Source: Planctomycetota bacterium (GTDB taxonomy: Bacteria > Planctomycetota > B15-G4). From it: 64,000 nucleotides of DNA. The DNA is taken from assembly GCA_052387675.1 (NCBI GenBank), contig JBQTIY010000001.1:160227-224226 (forward strand), written 5' to 3'. A program made the position numbers and the translations under genes. Of this stretch, positions 2,964-25,862 are shown in pieces. The notes below the pieces were generated by a model that saw only the letters and a list, made by a program, of their open reading frames with translations, was not told the DNA's origin and did not search any database. Each line of letters opens with the position of its first letter. Within the stretch, counting starts at the first letter, position 1.

Positions 2964-5266
2964 CTCTTACCTCCACTTTTGAGTGCCTTGTGTTGAGCAA
3001 CCGTCCTCGACATGCACATCCACGCCCAGGGTGACCAGACGAGGATATTGCGTATCACTGTCCCGAGGAGCTCAGGGGAACGGCGCAGCGCTACCCACGC
3101 TTGCCTTGGGACCATGTTTGCAGCCTCGAAGTCCGGCCAACGACTGAGCATGACCATGGCTTGCATCGTATCCAAAAGCGCTTCAGTTGCGAATTCCGCC
3201 GAACGAAACAGCAGAGTGGCCCGGCGCCGCCATCTCCCGAACAAGCCAAACTCCAAGGGAGACGTGAACTGGAAGAACAGCATGCCGCTTGTGATTGTCG
3301 CCAACATGCGTAGGGGATGCGAAAGCGTGTAGAGCCACCGTGTAGTTGGTGTATCCAGGGACATATAGGGCGAGAGACTTGCGCCCGACATAACCACGAG
3401 CGCAGCTACCGCAACATACAAGAGAGATCCAAAGGCCCATGTCACCATCAAGATGTGAAACGCTGATCTCTGCACCGCGGCACGCAAGAGCACTACGAGA
3501 AGACTTGCAACCAGGGACAGTGCTACACAGTAGACGACCAACGTAGATTCTGAGACAACGAACACGAAGCCGTAGCAGAATGTCGCGACAGCCACAAGGC
3601 CCAACAACTTTAAGGACAGCGGCGCACTCCATAGCATCGCGCGTGCATGGGTCTCTCTCCCGGCATCCGCGCCATGGACCGCTTCCTGATGAGGAGGGCG
3701 CTCCCTACTGATATGACCGTCTGTCAGGTAGAGCAGTTCCGCTCGGAGGGAATCTGCGAGATGCGTGTTATGCGATATCACAAGGATGCTGCGGCTGTCA
3801 CCGCACATGCTACTTAAGGCTGTGAGAAACTCGGCTTCGTCCTTTGCAGACAAGCCCCAAGTCGGCTCGTCCAGCACCACCACTCGGGTCGTCGGCGTGA
3901 TCGCTGAGGCCAACACAAGGAGTTTCTGCTGAAGCGGCGTTAGTTGAATTACACATCGATGGTCCGGAACGGGCACCCAGCTATCAATCAACTGAAGCGC
4001 TATCGCGTTGTCGTGGCAGTGCTTCTTGTAGCTACCCACGGTGGGCAGAGGTAGCTGCTGTAGCGGATACTGGCTGAGGTACGTCACGCAAGACAAGATG
4101 TCTTCACGAGTAAGGGACGCCAATGGTGTTCCGTTGAGCTCAACCATCCCTTTGTCCGGTGTCAACAGCTTGTACACCAGCTTTGCAATACTAGACTTGC
4201 CAGAACCGTTGGGGCCAACGATGCAATAGTTCTGACCGGGATAGATCGCGAAGGACAGCGCGTCCAACAGCGGCTCTTGACGCACGATTTCTGACCCCGG
4301 ATAGTCGAGGAAGCTGACTTCCTTAAACTGGACAAGCGGGGCCGTACCTTCCGGACGTACTCCAGTGGGTATTTGGTCGCGTCGCCGCTCGGGTCTGTGA
4401 ATGTCTTCTAGAAAATCCATCGGCCGAAGCTGCCCTCCATCGAGAAGGTAAGCGGCATCGGTGACGCAAAGCAGATCTTCCCTCTCATGTTCGAGCAAGA
4501 CGATGTGGGATGAACGCGCACTCCGGATAGCCGCGAGCAGGGCCGCCCTGCCCGAAGAATCAAGCCAGGGAACTACTCCATGAAGCGCATAGCAACTGCG
4601 ATCACTGGAAAAGGCTAGGGAAAGGGCTACACGCATCCGCTCGCCACCGGAAAGCGCCGAAAGGGTGCGCCGCAGGAAGGATGGTGCAAGACCAAATCGC
4701 GTGAGTGCGCTTATGGCTTGGTTGCGGTCCATCCCAAGAGAGCGGAAGTTGTCCTCAACCCGGGAGAAGAGCAGCATCTGATCGGGATCGGGGCCGACGT
4801 ACGCGGTCGATTCTGGGAGAGCGCCCTCAACTACATCCAGTTTGCCTGTGTAGGGCCTAAGAAGTTCTTCGATGGGTGCCCATGGAACAACACCGTCGGT
4901 AATGGGAATTAGGCCTGCGATAATCCCGCCAAGCACGTGGTACGCAGGGGTGTTTTCTCCAACGATCAGACACGGGCGTCCGGGTGTGAGTTCGATCCTG
5001 GCTCCATCGAGCAGCACGACGCCACACTTCAGTACGTAGTTGAGCTTCATGCTAAGCACAGGCGCCATCTCATTCTCTGCCACCAGGATGTTCCACGGAG
5101 AGTTCGTCGCCATTCGGTGTCGCTGAGTCGCAGAGTGTGCCTCGCGGTAGATCCCCCCCCAACACTTCCGTTCAGCGGCGGCGCGTAGCACCGCCCTCTG
5201 CGTGCTGTTGTTGGGCGGCGCCGCTAAGTGCCCCGCTTCGGGAGTTGGTCGATTCGGCCCGGTCAC
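2960..5266 (-). CDS. Fused ECF-type ABC transporter energy module: NBD1 (degenerate) - NBD2 (consensus) - EcfT/CbiQ-like transmembrane domain in one 768-aa polypeptide
   Basis: NBD1 has an atypical P-loop (LIVGENTPAYHVLGG), an intact signature (LSGGERMRV) and a degenerate Walker B (IVLLEHE). NBD2 has Walker A GPNGSGKSS, Q-loop LSQYP, Walker B VVVLDEPT and H-loop ISHN, with a degenerate signature (LTPLQQK). The C-terminal ~230 aa carry 5-6 TM helices (LLGLVAVATFCYGFVFVV, LVVYCVALSLVASLLVVLL, LMVTWAFGSLLYVAVAALVVM) and an amphipathic EcfT-like coupling segment. The true start may be the internal MATNSPW (about 5113); the longest ORF start overlaps the DUF4145 gene stop by 4 nt. Confidence 0.7.
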   Translation of the reverse strand: MTGPNRPTPEAGHLAAPPNNSTQRAVLRAAAERKCWGGIYREAHSATQRHRMATNSPWNILVAENEMAPVLSMKLNYVLKCGVVLLDGARIELTPGRPCLIVGENTPAYHVLGGIIAGLIPITDGVVPWAPIEELLRPYTGKLDVVEGALPESTAYVGPDPDQMLLFSRVEDNFRSLGMDRNQAISALTRFGLAPSFLRRTLSALSGGERMRVALSLAFSSDRSCYALHGVVPWLDSSGRAALLAAIRSARSSHIVLLEHEREDLLCVTDAAYLLDGGQLRPMDFLEDIHRPERRRDQIPTGVRPEGTAPLVQFKEVSFLDYPGSEIVRQEPLLDALSFAIYPGQNYCIVGPNGSGKSSIAKLVYKLLTPDKGMVELNGTPLASLTREDILSCVTYLSQYPLQQLPLPTVGSYKKHCHDNAIALQLIDSWVPVPDHRCVIQLTPLQQKLLVLASAITPTTRVVVLDEPTWGLSAKDEAEFLTALSSMCGDSRSILVISHNTHLADSLRAELLYLTDGHISRERPPHQEAVHGADAGRETHARAMLWSAPLSLKLLGLVAVATFCYGFVFVVSESTLVVYCVALSLVASLLVVLLRAAVQRSAFHILMVTWAFGSLLYVAVAALVVMSGASLSPYMSLDTPTTRWLYTLSHPLRMLATITSGMLFFQFTSPLEFGLFGRWRRRATLLFRSAEFATEALLDTMQAMVMLSRWPDFEAANMVPRQAWVALRRSPELLGTVIRNILVWSPWAWMCMSRTVAQHKALKSGGKR

Positions 5267-11598: not shown

Positions 11599-12963
11599 AT
11601 GGCCGACCCCCTGCGTATCGGCGTCATCGGCTGCGGCGAGATCCTGCGCACGCATCTGTGGGGCTATTGGTCGATCGGGCGCGCCGAGCAGGAGTCGCTG
11701 CGAGTCGTGGCGCTGTGCGACCGCAGCCGCAGCCAGGCCGAGCGCTACGTGGGCCGCTTCCTGCGCGGCTCGCCGCCGGAGGAGGGCGCCTTCAACGTCG
11801 CGCCGCGACGGCGCCGCTACAAGGCCGGGCTCATCGGACTGGCCGACTTGCCGCAGGGCAATGCGCCGGTGGCGGTTCACGAAGTGTGGCAAGAACTTGT
11901 CGCTCGCGACGACCTGGATCTCGTGGTCATCTTGCTGCCGCCGGCCTTGCACGCCGACGTGGCCGAGGCGGCGCTGCGTGCCGGCAAGCATGTCTTCGTG
12001 GAAAAGCCGCTGGCGCTCAGCGTGAGCGAGGCGCGGCGCGTCTGTGCGGCGGCCGGCGAGGGTCGACGCCATTGCGCGGTGGGCCTCAACTATCGCTTCG
12101 ACGGCGCCGTGCGCGCGGCGCAGTGGCTGCTGAGTTCGGGGCGGCTCGGTGCGCCGCGCCTCTTTCACTCGCTCACGCTGCGCGCGCCCGGACACCGCCG
12201 CGAGGCGGCCACGCGCAGCCAGGCTCTCGTGCAGAAAGTGCGCGACTGGGCCGCCTTCCATCGGGGCAAGCCCGCGGGCCACGCGCCCGGCGCCGAGTGG
12301 CGCTACGTCGCCGAGGAAATCGGCTCGGGCGAACTCGTTGAGAACGGCATCCACCTGCTCGACCTGGGCCGCGCCCTGCTCGGCGAGATCGATCGCGTGA
12401 GCGGCCAGCTTGGGCGCCTGCAGCCGCTTCAGTTGCGCGGCCCCGACGGCAGCGAGCAATCCTGCGCCGTGCCAGACACCTTTCAGACGCTGCTGCGCTT
12501 TCGGAGCGGGGTGCGCGGAATGGTGGCCGTCTCCTCCGGAGTTTGGGGCGAGGCCAGCAGTGCGCGCGAGAACTTCCGGCTCTACGGCGATGAGGGCTGC
12601 GTGACACAGGAGAGCTTCACCGGGCGGGATGGCCGGCCGGAGGATCCCTGGACGCTGCTGCACGCCGGCGCGCCGGCCGAGCTGCTCGAGCGCTGGTTTC
12701 CGGGCGGGCTGAGCCATCGCTTCGGGCTGCAGACGCTCGACTTGCTGCGCGCGATCCGCGGCTCAGGGCGCGCGCCGGAAGTCGATGCGCGCGAGGGGCT
12801 GCACTCTCTGGCGGCCTGCGACGCCGTCGCCAAGTCCGACCTCCTCGGCCGCGAAGTCGCGCTTTCGGAAGTGCTGAATGAACGCCCGGCGGTCGCTTCG
12901 GCGGCGGCTTCGACCGTGGCTTCGACGGCGAAGCGGGCTGCGGCTCAGGGCGCGGGCGACTAG
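11599..12963 (+). CDS. Gfo/Idh/MocA family NAD(P)-dependent oxidoreductase
   Basis: N-terminal LRIGVIGCGEILRTHLWGY Rossmann motif, and AGKHVFVEKPLALSVSEARRV (the EKP motif of the Gfo/Idh/MocA family). Confidence 0.85.
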   Translation: MADPLRIGVIGCGEILRTHLWGYWSIGRAEQESLRVVALCDRSRSQAERYVGRFLRGSPPEEGAFNVAPRRRRYKAGLIGLADLPQGNAPVAVHEVWQELVARDDLDLVVILLPPALHADVAEAALRAGKHVFVEKPLALSVSEARRVCAAAGEGRRHCAVGLNYRFDGAVRAAQWLLSSGRLGAPRLFHSLTLRAPGHRREAATRSQALVQKVRDWAAFHRGKPAGHAPGAEWRYVAEEIGSGELVENGIHLLDLGRALLGEIDRVSGQLGRLQPLQLRGPDGSEQSCAVPDTFQTLLRFRSGVRGMVAVSSGVWGEASSARENFRLYGDEGCVTQESFTGRDGRPEDPWTLLHAGAPAELLERWFPGGLSHRFGLQTLDLLRAIRGSGRAPEVDAREGLHSLAACDAVAKSDLLGREVALSEVLNERPAVASAAASTVASTAKRAAAQGAGD

Positions 12964-13048
12964 AGACGCGCTTGCCGTGCCGCGCGACGCGCGCGCAGCC
13001 TCCCGTCGGCACTGGCAGCGCGGGGCCGCCGACGCCATCATGGGCGGC

Positions 13049-14511
<1,463 letters not shown>

Positions 14512-14515
<4 letters not shown>

Positions 14516-14742
14516 CGGACGCTTCGCCCAGCCCCGCCGCGCCCGACGACAGCGCGCCCGACGACGGCTACCGCACGCAATCGCCCGACACCAGCCGCGA
14601 GATCGAGCAGTTGCAGATCCTGCGCTGGCGCGCCATGTCGCCCAGCGAGAAGCTGGCCGAGTTCGAAGACATGTGCCGCGCTGCCGAGGTCCTCAGCGCC
14701 ATGGGAAAGCAGCTCCGACGCACGACTCGGCATGAGCACTGA
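14512..14742 (+). CDS. Small alpha-helical protein (76 aa), putative partner (antitoxin-like) of the downstream AbiEii-like NTase
   Basis: The ATG overlaps the cysS TGA (ATGA at 14512-14515), and its stop overlaps the NTase start by 11 nt. It shares weak similarity and spacing (P-x6-F-x7-E-x5-G) with the small protein at 25668-25862. Confidence 0.45.
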
Positions 14743-15358
14743 GCCCTCAAGCGCCGAGTCCGCGAGCGCAGAGCATTCACCCAATGTCATTGCGGCAATG
14801 CAGGCCGTGGCTGCCGTGCTCGACTCCGCGCAAGTCCGCTACGCCTTTACCGGATCACTCTCCAGCAGCCTGCACGGCGAAGTCCGCACGACCCGCGACG
14901 TCGATGTCCTCATCGAGCTTCCCCCGGCCGCAGTCGAGCGGCTCCTGAAGGCTCTCCGGCAGGACTTCTACGTGCCCGAGACGACCGCCCGGCAGGCGAT
15001 TGCTGCAGGCTCATCCTTCAACGTGATTCACCTTGGCAGCCAAGTGAAGGTGGACATCTATCCGCTGCAGCGGCGTTCGCCCGAACACGATCAGCTCTCT
15101 CGGCGCGTCGCGGTCAGTTCGCCGGGCGACCCGCAGCGACAATTGTGGTTCACCTCCGCTGAGACGTCGATCCTCAGCAAGCTGACTTGGTACCAGAAGG
15201 GTGGACTCGTCTCGGGCCAGCAGTGGCGCGATGTGCTCGGCGTGCTCAAAGTGCAGGCCGAGCGCCTTGATCGCGACTATCTGGAGCGCACCGCTGCGGC
15301 GCTGGGGCTCACCGAACTGCTGCACCGCGCGCTCATCGAGTCGGGCCTCAGACCCTGA
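14732..15358 (+). CDS. Short AbiEii-like (DUF1814-like) nucleotidyltransferase-fold protein, putative toxin/abortive-infection effector
   Basis: 208 aa. The Pol-beta NTase motif [26 protein letters not shown] (hG[GS]...RxTxDhDh) and a C-terminal K...RD motif region; paralogous to 25130-25717. Confidence 0.65.
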
Positions 15359-18300
15359 GTCGCGACAGCCCCGCGAGCGCGCGCCACGGGCCGCGCCGCA
15401 AGCTGGTGAGCGGCGTGTCGCGCCAGCGGCGCGTCTTCTCCACGATCGCGTCCACGAACATGTCTTCAAGGCCGTCGGTCAGCGGGTAAGCGCCGCGGCC
15501 CTCGTGGACTGAGCAGAGCAGGCGCGCCAACCCGACGCGCTTGAGCTCGGGCATGAGCGTGGTGACGGTGTCGCTGGGCCGCACCGGGCCGAGCAGTTCG
15601 GACTCGTCGGCGCTGAGCATCGCGGTCAAGGCGCCGGCGCTGCCCGGTGCGGCTAGGCGAAAGCCCCGGCAGCGGCCGCCCTCGACGATGAGCTGCAGCC
15701 GCGCGCGGACCTGTGCGGGGGCCACGCCGGCCACGCCGGCCCCGCCCTCGGCGTGCTCGCCATCCACGAGAGCGCCGCGCTCGCCGACCAGCGCCCAGCG
15801 CCCGCGCGCAAAGTCTCGCGGCTCATGGATCTCGGCTTGCAGGCCCCCGGCAAAGCTCAACTCCACGATGCGGGCGCCGCCGGCGGTCCGGCGGCGGGCT
15901 GAAAGCAGGCGAGTCGGCGTCCCAACTGGCGCCCCAAGTGGGGCCCCCACGGGCGCCCCGCCCCGCGCCAGGACGCGGGCCAGTGCCACGGCGTGGTAAC
16001 GCCAGGCCGAGCGATCAATGACCACACGCTGGAGCCGGCCTAGGTCTGGCCCAGCCTCAGACTCGGGTCTCGGACCGGGCTTCGGACCGAGCTTTGGGCC
16101 GCGAAGTCCCGGCGCAGATGACCCTCCAGCTCCCGCATCCGCGCTGCCGTCCACTGTGACAACGTTGTTGTCCAAACCCGCCGAGGAGGCCCCGGTCCGG
16201 ACAGCGTTGTTGTCCAGACTCCCGTCCGTGGTGAAGGCTCGGAGCGCCAGACCGAGCCAGGGGAGTGTGGCTGTGTCCTCGGCCACCCACACGTGGCGGT
16301 AGACGCGCAGCCGGCGCGCGTGCCGCAAGTGCTTGAGCAGCAAGACCGGCGTGTCCAGGATCAGGTCCACGCGGCGCGGATCGAAGGCGCCGCTGCGGGC
16401 CAGTTCAGCCAGCCGCGCGAGCACGCCGGGCACCGCCTCCTTGGTGACGGCGCAGTACAGCAAGTCCACGCCGGCCAGTGTTTTCGCGTCGAGGGCGTCG
16501 AAGGCTCGCACGGCGAGTTCGCGGCCGCCAATCGAGAGGCTGCGCGCCCGCCGCGCGCAGACGCCGGCGAGGACGAAGCGGTCCTCGAGCCACAGCAAGG
16601 TCGGCAGCACGTCCTCCTGCACGCGCCGGCCGGCCCCCAGCACGAGCACGCGGCGCGCGTCGGGCCGGGGCTGACGTCGCGGCGGTGGCTTGGTGCCGAG
16701 TGCCGACGGCGCGGCTTCCTCGTCGTGCGCGGCCGGCGGCAGGCCCAGGCGCTGGCGCAAGTGGCGCGCCAGCCGGATCGAAAGCGCGGCGATTGTGAAG
16801 GTGGGATTGGCGCAACCACTTGTGGGGAAGACAGATCCGCCGGCGAGGTAAACGTTGTTGGTTGAGTGGACGCGGAGCGACGGATCCACCACCGAGGTGG
16901 CCGGGTCGGTGCCCATGCGCGTCGTGCCGAGGTGATGGCTGGCATCCTGGTCGATGGGCCAGCCGCGCACCCCGCCTGCGGCGCTCCGAGAATTCGCCGC
17001 GCCAGCCGCGCCGCCCAAGCCAGAGGGCTCCGTGAGATGGGCCGCTAGGTCGGTGCGCAACTCGCCGAATCCGTTGCGGCGCAGATCCTCGGCCAGCGCC
17101 TCATGCAGGGCGAGCAGTGAGCGGCGGTCCCGCTCGGAGGACTCATGCCGCACGAGCGGCAGGCGCTGCCCATAGGCGTCGCGTTCCTCGGCCAACTGCA
17201 CCCGGTTCTCGGCGCGCGGCTCCATCTCCAAGAAGTTGCGCAGGCGGACGGCACGCACGGTCGGCGAGCGCCCCTCGCGCAGGCGCGCGGCCACGTAACG
17301 GGCAACCATCGGCGCGTGCCGCAGCACGAGCCCGGCCAACTTGACCCAGTCCCACGCCGACTTGCGCTCGTTTTGCAGGTCGGAGTCGTCCCCGCTTTCG
17401 GAATAGTCACGCATGGCGACAACGCGGTCTTGGCGCGCCGCCTTCCAGCGCCGGAAGAGGCCGCCGCTGCGCTTGACCAGAAAGACGAAGGCCTCGACGC
17501 CGCGATTGTCCGACCAGGGGAAGAGCGGTTCGAAGCGCACGTAGCAGTTGAGCAGGCCGCGCGCGCGCTGCTCGGACTCGGACAGCCGCAGCCCGGCGTA
17601 CCCGGCGTAGCCCTTGTGCAGGCAGCCGAAGTGGTAAGGCAAGTCGCGCACCGGGCGCGCAAGCTGGATCACGCCGCCGTAGTTCTTGGGGTGGTTCATC
17701 AGCCAGCGGCCGACTTGGTCGTGCTCGTTGCCGAGGCCGGCGGCGCAGAGATCGGTGGAATTCAGCAGCAGGCGCGCGTTCTCGAGGCCGCCGGTGGCCA
17801 GCACGAAGTAGCGCGCGCGCAGCGCGAGCTGCCGGCCCCCGCGCGTCCGCACGATGGCTTGGCGAATGGCGGGCGCCGCCGGCGGCGCGGCCAGCGCGGC
17901 GGTTGGGCCCGGCGCGGCGGGCTGCGCGAGGGGCGAAGCTTCGAGGCGCAGCACGGTGGCGTCGAGCCACAGATCGACGGCGGGCCCTTCGCAGAGCTCG
18001 CGCAGTTCGCGCCCAAAGTTTTGCGGCTCGGCGCAGGCCATGAAGATCTTCTCTTCCATGCGCTGCCAGGCGAGTTGCGCATCGCCGCGCGCCTTGAGAG
18101 CGCCGAAGCCTTGGGCCCCGAAATGCGCCAGCGGAGCGAAGCGATAGCGCGCGGCGGCGCGCGCCCAGTCGGCCAGCAGCTCCTCGCGGGAAATCGGCCA
18201 GGCGGCGTGCGGCGGCAGCACGGCGCGCGGCAGCAGATCGATCGGATCGAGCGGCGCGCTGAGTCCCGCCCAGGTTGTGGAGGCGCCGCCGAGCACGCGC

Positions 18301-25129: not shown

Positions 25130-25717
25130 TTAGGCCTTGCGCGTCGCTTGCCGCCAGCGTTCGAGCAGCGGCAACTCCACAGCCTCCGCGAACTCCCGCA
25201 GTGTTCGCTCGATGAAGGCGAGGTCCAGCTTTGGCTGTCGAGCCACCACCGAGCGCACGTCTTCGAGGTCGCGCTCTCGTCCGGCGATGACCTTGTGGAT
25301 CACCAGATCCTCCGGCGAAACGAAGCGCACGGCCACGGCCCCCATGTGCACGGTCCGCGCCCGCCGCAGAGCCTGCTGCTCGTAGTCCGAGTCGGAGAAG
25401 ACGAGGTCCACGCGCATGCCGCTCGCGGCGTCCGAGCAAGGCAGGACCATGGTCTCGCGCGCAAAGGTTTGGGGATCGACAAGCGCTTGCAGCCCCGCGG
25501 CCTGGGCTGCTGCAACGACCTCGGCCAAACGGTCGAGCGATGCGCCGAGCGTGATGTCGATGTCCCTCGTCAGGCGTGGCTCGCCGTGCACGAGTACAGC
25601 CTGCCCGCCGATCACCATGTAGGGCACGCGCGCCGCGTCCAGCGCGCTGGCGATCCGGCCCAGGATCTCAGAGATCACGGAAGACTCGCGCCCGCCGAAT
25701 GTCCTCCTCGATGCCAT
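25130..25717 (-). CDS. Short AbiEii-like nucleotidyltransferase-fold protein (paralog of 14732-15358)
   Basis: 195 aa. MVIGGQAVLVHGEPRLTRDIDITL (GGxAL + RxTxDIDI) and C-terminal IHKVIAGRERDLEDV (K..A..R.RD..D, AbiEii motif III-like). An alternative GTG start at 25678 lies just after the upstream small gene's stop. Confidence 0.65.
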   Translation of the reverse strand: MASRRTFGGRESSVISEILGRIASALDAARVPYMVIGGQAVLVHGEPRLTRDIDITLGASLDRLAEVVAAAQAAGLQALVDPQTFARETMVLPCSDAASGMRVDLVFSDSDYEQQALRRARTVHMGAVAVRFVSPEDLVIHKVIAGRERDLEDVRSVVARQPKLDLAFIERTLREFAEAVELPLLERWRQATRKA

Positions 25718-25862
25718 CGAGCGGATCCTTCAGTGGGATGACGCCGAGTTGCCGGGCCTCCTCGAGCAGCAGTTCGTGGATGCGGAAGTTCTCTTCGACA
25801 TCCAGGGGCCGCGCGAGTTGGTCACGCTCGAAGTCGTCGAGGAGCTTGCAGCGGCGAATCAT
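25668..25862 (-). CDS. Small alpha-helical protein (64 aa), putative partner of the downstream NTase
   Basis: MIRRCKLLDDFERDQLARPLDVEENFRIHELLLEEARQLG...; it overlaps or abuts the NTase start (GTGATCTCTGA arrangement). Weakly similar to the protein at 14512-14742. Confidence 0.45.
   Translation of the reverse strand: MIRRCKLLDDFERDQLARPLDVEENFRIHELLLEEARQLGVIPLKDPLDGIEEDIRRARVFRDL

Follow-up and report, generated by a model that had tools for sequence, protein, structure and literature searches.

A probable MenAT1-type toxin–antitoxin-like gene pair behind cysS in a Planctomycetota bacterium

What kind of system is encoded by two short genes that follow the cysteinyl-tRNA synthetase gene cysS so closely that the first of them opens on its stop codon? 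The question was raised by a stretch of 64,000 nucleotides (nt) from a Planctomycetota bacterium (contig JBQTIY010000001.1, positions 160,227 to 224,226 of the forward strand), referred to in its full length as the window; positions are counted from its first letter. An open reading frame (ORF) of 76 amino acids (aa) at 14512–14742 on the plus strand starts with an ATG placed on the cysS stop codon (ATGA, the TGA being 14513–14515) and overlaps by 11 nt a 208-aa ORF at 14732–15358, also on the plus strand, whose ATG lies at 14732. These coordinates and overlaps agree with those of an earlier reading made from the sequence alone (the sequence-only reading), which had presented the pair as a truncated AbiEii-like nucleotidyltransferase (NTase) with a tiny partner in a new architecture. 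Each ORF has a family of homologues and is a real gene rather than a chance reading frame in DNA of 69% G+C. The two products are identical to ACT4PU_00710 and ACT4PU_00715, and the genome from which the window was taken is metagenome-assembled.

We consider it probable, at roughly 65%, that the pair is a MenAT1-type toxin–antitoxin-like module, acquired by insertion behind cysS and transcribed together with that gene, in which the small helical protein is a MenA1-like putative antitoxin and the NTase a MenT1-like putative toxin. The observations that carry this reading are the gene structure, the likeness of fold and motifs to MenT1 and MenA1, the constant association of the two parts, either as neighbouring genes or fused, and a cysS linkage restricted to one clade. 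In MenAT1 (Rv0078B/Rv0078A) of Mycobacterium tuberculosis, MenT1 is toxic and is counteracted by MenA1 (PMC6504116); MenT1 extends tRNA 3' ends, and a MenT1:MenA1:MenT1 complex has been described (PMC10435456); MenA1 induces auto-phosphorylation of MenT1 at T39 (PMC11375011). The combination of a short DUF1814-type NTase with a tiny helical antitoxin devoid of a helix-turn-helix (HTH) is that of MenAT1. Because that system was validated and structurally characterised between 2019 and 2024 (PMC6504116, PMC10435456, PMC11375011), the claim of a new architecture could not be upheld, and the pair does not represent a new kind of system. The accompanying statement that it fits neither AbiE nor MNT/HEPN was correct: no AbiEi partner was found, and Pfam scans of the small protein and its family gave no HEPN match.

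The nucleotidyltransferase and its small partner

The Pol-beta NTase core reported by the sequence-only reading, with its TGS and R-T-T-R-D-V-D motifs, was confirmed. T40-G41-S42 (14849–14857, plus strand) forms the hG[GS] motif of the Pol-beta NTase fold, with G41 and S42 present in 34 of 35 aligned homologues, and R52-T53-T54-R55-D56-V57-D58 (14885–14905, plus strand) aligns with R37-F38-T39-R40-D41-V42-D43 of MenT1. The toxicity of MenT1 requires D41, its auto-phosphorylation occurs at T39, and the role of D43 has likewise been described (PMC10435456, PMC11375011). The segment from R52 to D58 would supply two catalytic aspartates and a threonine where MenT1 has its phospho-acceptor T39. The pattern R-x-[TS]-x-D-x-D, which corresponds to R37, T39, D41, and D43 of MenT1 and is present in the window NTase, was near-invariant over about 85 loci (R in 84, [TS] in 84, and the two D in 83 and 84, respectively). 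D108, within the motif K-V-D-I-Y (15053–15055, plus strand), was invariant in 35 of 35 homologues, belongs to model strand E106–111, and is the presumed third active-site carboxylate by analogy with the general Pol-beta NTase fold. K150 and Q164-W-R-D167 (15179–15232, plus strand) are the presumed counterparts of K137 and D149-R-S-D152 of MenT1; the mapping of K150 and D167 onto K137 and D152 rests on their equal spacing and was not confirmed by sequence alignment, and a profile of the C-terminal half of the NTase did not match MenT1 among PDB sequences. In the 35-member alignment, S45, G49, R52, D56, D58, D108, E144, K150, W153, S161, Q164, W165, and D167 were invariant, and the window NTase retains all of them.

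The AlphaFold model of the NTase (predicted local distance difference test score, pLDDT, 89.8) includes a helical C-terminal domain. When it was searched with Foldseek, 5uvd ranked first and the next five hits were MenT1 or MenAT1 chains. The family profile matched MenT1 among PDB sequences with an E of 2.1e-5, and hhalign aligned the NTase with MenT1 at 89.5% probability, restricted to the N-terminal 59 columns. The window protein is thus a MenT1-fold NTase of the approximately 195-aa type without the C-terminal extension of AbiEii. The check by Pfam and structure prediction that had been proposed for the locus gave no Pfam match above threshold and a model that resembles MenT1. The placement of the NTase in the DUF1814/AbiEii structural superfamily, as a conserved NTase module of toxin–antitoxin type, held.

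A word-indexed search found at least 709 homologues of the NTase; of the 120 listed, nearly all were 190–200 aa long. An exhaustive profile search returned 1656 representative clusters at E ≤ 1e-30 and 14,872 at E ≤ 1e-3. By its sequence, the NTase belongs at full length to a large family without annotation; since the unfused members are 190–200 aa long, it is not truncated, and the designation "truncated AbiEii" has to be abandoned for a protein whose length is normal both for its own family and for MenT1. A precomputed PF08843 match was recorded for only 2 of the 120 listed homologues.

The 76-aa protein alone matched only itself in the word-indexed search. On long contigs, however, the genes that precede NTase homologues were clearly related to it and had a GYRTQSxDTSxEIERL... 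stretch in common, and the window ORF was picked up by a profile made solely from such genes at three other loci. Its residues 1–18 are an unconserved leader rich in Pro, Asp, and Ala, and residues 19–70 match the family. The predicted helical nature of the protein rests on the AlphaFold model of a full-length homologue (P0180, four helices, pLDDT 87.5), from which the helices were transferred by alignment with an offset of +19. Helix 1 would span residues 29–41 (14596–14634, plus strand; 10–22 in P0180) and helix 2 residues 44–69 (14641–14718, plus strand; 25–50 in P0180), the latter being the likely counterpart of helix alpha-1 of MenA1. Helix 1 is preceded by a nearly invariant helix-cap, D26-T27-x-x-E30, in which D is invariant and T and E are at least 90% conserved. 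The partner has no convincing HTH, in agreement with the initial description of it as a small helical non-HTH protein.

The only recurrent Pfam family among the small proteins was PF18993 (Rv0078B-related antitoxin), found in 10 of 37 members with a best score of 22.5 bits (E 1.2e-4). All of these scores were below the 27.1-bit cut-off, and the matches always lay over helices 2 and 3, positions 8–48 of the Pfam Rv0078B profile being aligned to this region of the family members. A precomputed PF18993 match was recorded for about one-third of the listed small-protein homologues. Searches of PDB sequences with the small-protein profile and with one single member did not match MenA1. Each of these lines of evidence for a likeness to MenA1 is weak alone; the best matches of the NTase and of its partner fell independently on two chains of one crystal structure.

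By homology to MenAT1, we infer the toxicity, the tRNA substrate, the binding mode, and the auto-phosphorylation as follows. The NTase would extend tRNA 3' ends, and the small protein would act as a helical inhibitor holding it in check. The long helix 2, like MenA1 alpha-1, would lie across the active-site face of the NTase and block the site, and it might also push Thr54 toward the bound nucleoside triphosphate, so that the NTase would phosphorylate and silence itself. An inhibitor without helices 3 and 4 would retain the portion that is sufficient in MenA1, and the start codon on the cysS stop would couple its production to a gene that is essential and expressed at all times.

Co-occurrence, fusion, and the cysS-linked clade

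The locus survey comprised 88 loci, the window included; a scan of a species-representative genome collection contributed 80 further loci, and a relative was encoded in 300 of the 309 candidate stretches. A homologous small gene ended at the NTase start in 76 of the 88 loci, and in the 12 others the small domain was fused in frame to the NTase (ten filamentous cyanobacteria and two Chloroflexota). A small gene or domain thus accompanied the NTase in 88 of 88 loci, so that the co-occurrence survey suggested along with the sequence-only reading came out in favour of a pair. Fusions accounted for 59 of the 149 top representative clusters analysed (approximately 40%; 237–299 aa), with the small domain N-terminal in 59 of 59, and fusion is therefore a major architecture of the NTase family. 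The fused proteins of the survey, of 275–300 aa, lie at about 3650–4570 in each of the 12 loci (L016, L022, L036, L041, L045, L054, L055, L067, L075, and L083 in cyanobacteria; L068 and L069 in Chloroflexota); others are found among P0243–P0389.

No conserved third gene was found around the 88 loci, whose neighbourhoods vary. At least 11 homologous pairs adjoin known defence genes, as is common for toxin–antitoxin and abortive-infection modules, which suggests a defence-island location of homologous pairs in other genomes. These neighbours included BrxC (L015, L017, and L020), a BrxD-like protein (L065, L070, and L086), and Mokosh MkoA (L007, L030, L031, L038, and L071); a weak pAgo-associated match was also seen at L016, L022, and L036. 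The PADLOC scores (1735 bits for BrxC, 129 for BrxD, and 565 for MkoA) come from scans of one or two members per cluster; the remaining loci were assigned by BLAST clustering.

In an alignment with 36 representatives, the window partner tracks its family through helix 2 (...SAMGKQLRR) and ends six unrelated residues later. It is thus without the approximately 30 C-terminal residues, helices 3 and 4, that all homologues from the other 87 first-surveyed loci have. Compared with L001, about 49 nt are missing from the small gene of the window, and no remnant of helices 3 and 4 was found in the other reading frames of the window. The full 93-aa partner is present in the lineages P0003/L001 and P0002/L092. 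A third lineage (P0004/L088; gene at 2142–2345 of L088, also in L089–L091) has a partner of 67 aa that ends just past helix 2 through its own deletion of about 52 nt. Since the L088 NTase is nearer to that of L001 (78% identity) than to that of the window (56%), and the partner is full length everywhere else, the two truncations are independent.

Residues 1–32 of MenA1, which form helix alpha-1, can by themselves neutralise MenT1 and trigger its phosphorylation (PMC10435456; PMC11375011). The shortened partner could still work, because the retained helix 2 is the counterpart of this sufficient helix according to the Pfam alignment. The cysS-linked clade would then represent a natural experiment, in which an inhibitor was twice reduced to the helices found sufficient in laboratory truncations of MenA1.

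The linkage to cysS itself was confined to this clade. cysS was directly upstream of the pair in four lineages only (the window, L088, L001, and L092), all from one planctomycete clade, and was not found within 4 kb of the pair in any of the 80 species-level loci. In all four, L092 included, the small gene starts on the cysS stop or very close to it: with ATGA in the window, with GTGA in L088, and after a 4-nt gap in L001. Where measured (window, L088, and L001), the CysS proteins were 74–85% identical, and the linked lineages are for this reason taken as one clade. The linkage has the appearance of one insertion in an ancestor, passed on vertically, and not of a functional coupling across the family; the suggestion of the sequence-only reading that the coupling to cysS may be functionally meaningful is not supported as a general link. 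Within the clade, the pair is probably co-transcribed with cysS. The sole terminator-like site in 12700–15800 lies inside cysS at chance level, and none that is credible was found between cysS and the pair.

Relation to known systems and alternative readings

MenAT1 and the window pair share the order of the genes, with the small gene upstream of the NTase gene, as well as the length of the NTase (208 aa versus 196–197 aa for MenT1) and the R-x-T-R-D-V-D motif, including the phospho-acceptor threonine; the shortened partner of the window is also an approximate equivalent of the MenA1(1–32) fragment that still neutralises MenT1. They differ in that the partner family described here usually has four helices and 85–95 aa, with an extra conserved N-terminal helix bearing a D-T-x-P-E cap, and nothing in the 51 resolved residues of MenA1 corresponds to helix 1 or helix 4. 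Moreover, many members are single-chain fusions, the window pair sits in a cysS operon, and the family was found in Planctomycetota, Chloroflexota, Acidobacteriota, Cyanobacteria, and other phyla, and not in mycobacteria. MenAT3, MenAT4, and AbiE (DUF1814 toxins with COG5340 antitoxins) have in common with the pair the NTase superfamily and its catalytic motifs, the proposed tRNA-directed toxicity, and the proposed regulation through auto-phosphorylation at a Ser or Thr two residues before the first catalytic Asp. Their toxins of approximately 280–300 aa carry, however, an extra C-terminal domain, and their antitoxins of approximately 200 aa or more are winged-helix proteins; both features are absent here.

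Several observations weigh against a MenAT1-type module. MenT1 itself was non-toxic in E. coli (PMC10435456). Identity to MenT1 and MenA1 is just 15–19%, and MenA1 has neither the additional N-terminal helix nor the fourth helix of the partner family. The NTase remained under every Pfam threshold: AbiEii (PF08843) scored 14.9 bits (E 0.026, cut-off 22.5), and the other sub-threshold scores were 17.1 bits for Aminoglyc_resit, 15.0 for MdcG, and 13.2 for DUF6036. The 76-aa protein of the window had no Pfam match, and scans of both proteins with NCBIfam and PADLOC gave no match. The neighbours of the pair in the window are housekeeping and metabolic genes, and a simple consensus scan of 12700–15800 revealed no promoter-like site for the pair. 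Finally, so frequent a covalent fusion (approximately 40% among the top representative clusters) is not what classical toxin–antitoxin pairs usually show, and a cis-regulatory domain would fit it equally well.

This last point leads to the main rival, in which the NTase would be an enzyme that controls itself instead of a toxin that arrests growth, and the small protein would be its N-terminal regulatory or substrate-binding domain, split off as a separate gene in many lineages. Such a pair could be a triggered phage-defence effector, to which the fused proteins CapRel and EzeT may be likened, or a housekeeping RNA- or nucleotide-modifying enzyme. We regard this explanation as unlikely, although it shares its inhibitory logic with the MenAT1-type reading and can draw on the in-frame fusions (12 of 88 loci and 59 of 149 top representative clusters), on the co-occurrence in all 88 loci, on the BREX or Mokosh genes that adjoin some pairs, and on the stable, vertically inherited position behind cysS within one clade. 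However, both parts are structurally nearest to an experimentally validated toxin and antitoxin, and fusion does not exclude toxicity, because fused toxin–antitoxin proteins are known. In addition, the C-terminal half of the supposed domain was lost twice in the cysS clade while the NTase was kept, as would be expected of an inhibitor more than of an essential catalytic subunit. The same losses could indicate a decaying module, that is, a non-functional or poorly expressed remnant tolerated behind cysS after its antitoxin had lost helices 3 and 4. The window partner was alone among the 88 first surveyed in lacking the approximately 30 C-terminal residues, the related L088 lineage has a second, independent deletion of about 52 nt, and the G+C content at third codon positions (GC3) of the NTase gene is 0.78, compared with 0.86–0.89 for its neighbours. 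Decay nevertheless appears clearly less probable still, since the NTase retains every family-invariant residue in an intact frame and the remaining part of the small protein matches the family profile and includes the helix equivalent to MenA1(1–32). Both truncations stop just past helix 2, which suggests a tolerated minimal form and not random decay.

Two further explanations were given very little weight. That the NTase modifies antibiotics in the manner of ANT(2'')-Ia or LnuA, with an incidental small upstream ORF, seems very improbable: the structural scores of ANT(2'')-Ia, LnuA, TM1012, and the fungal NTase-like 5UVD were below that of MenT1, and the substrates of these proteins are small molecules or unknown. 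To our knowledge, none of them has a partner protein. The aminoglycoside 2''-adenylyltransferase family (PF10706) was tried and rejected, its 17.1 bits covering only residues 24–87 under a threshold of 21. A truncated canonical AbiE (AbiEi/AbiEii) abortive-infection system would be slightly harder still to reconcile with the data, as there is no adjacent AbiEi/COG5340 winged-helix antitoxin, the unfused family members are 190–200 aa long, and the short MenT1 is the best match. As a type IV AbiE system, the locus was rejected on its content: the 76-aa helical protein is the sole partner, and the neighbours are cysS and a GMC oxidoreductase gene, with no AbiEi gene of approximately 200 aa. MNT/HEPN (type VII) was rejected likewise, there being no HEPN partner and the NTase having 208 aa with a helical C-terminal domain, versus approximately 100–140 aa for the minimal NTases of that type.

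A published survey of MenAT1 homologues reported only 21 menA1 genes (PMC10435456). Our data suggest that MenT1-like/MenA1-like pairs form a much larger, unannotated family, which extends over several phyla in split and fused forms. The novelty is modest and consists of a distant branch of this kind, widespread but without annotation, that has a four-helix partner and frequent fusions; in the clade of the window, the location of the pair in the cysS operon and the natural reduction of the inhibitor to a minimal form are added. These findings should improve the annotation of "hypothetical proteins" and provide candidates for examining the generality of antitoxin-induced auto-phosphorylation. 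A bolder and rather improbable extension is that, in this large MenT-like branch, the "antitoxin" is mainly a cis-acting N-terminal domain that was repeatedly split off, and that the pair of the cysS clade has been domesticated for a regulatory role in translation. If so, an activity modifying tRNA 3' ends would be tied in this clade to the expression of an aminoacyl-tRNA synthetase, and the pair would not be a selfish or defence module.

The surroundings of the pair and a second nucleotidyltransferase

The cysS gene occupies 12878–14515 on the plus strand, and the identity of its product is certain from its sequence (Pfam tRNA-synt_1e, 332.6 bits, together with DALR_2 and CysS_C). The longest ORF includes at 12878–13040 an Arg-rich N-terminal extension of approximately 55 aa that is unmatched in CysS homologues. 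By BLASTP, CysS was 74% identical to the CysS proteins of L001 and L002, with alignments beginning at residues 46–58, and the true start is for this reason probably the ATG at 13040 or 13049. A Gfo/Idh/MocA oxidoreductase gene lies upstream of cysS, and a convergent gene for a GMC-type oxidoreductase lies downstream of the NTase gene. The G+C content and GC3 were 0.649 and 0.78 for the NTase gene and 0.699 and 0.894 for cysS, and GC3 was 0.86–0.87 for the flanking oxidoreductase genes. The low values of the NTase gene are compatible with an origin as a foreign module.

About 10 kb away, a second short NTase of 195 aa is encoded on the minus strand (25130–25717). DUF6036 and DUF2204 NTases resemble the NTase of the pair in length (approximately 195 aa) and in their R-x-T-R-D-x-D core; the NTase at 14732–15358 was below both thresholds (13.2 bits for DUF6036), whereas the second NTase, its paralogue, passed those of DUF6036 (43.6 bits), DUF2204 (39.2 bits), and AbiEii (29.2 bits). 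It also matched MenT1 by sequence (E 5.4e-7, residues 15–163). Its start is overlapped by a 64-aa ORF (25668–25862, minus strand) that had no Pfam match and was unrelated to the small-protein family of the 76-aa partner. Together, the two ORFs at 25130–25862 may constitute a second MenT-like module of the same genome.
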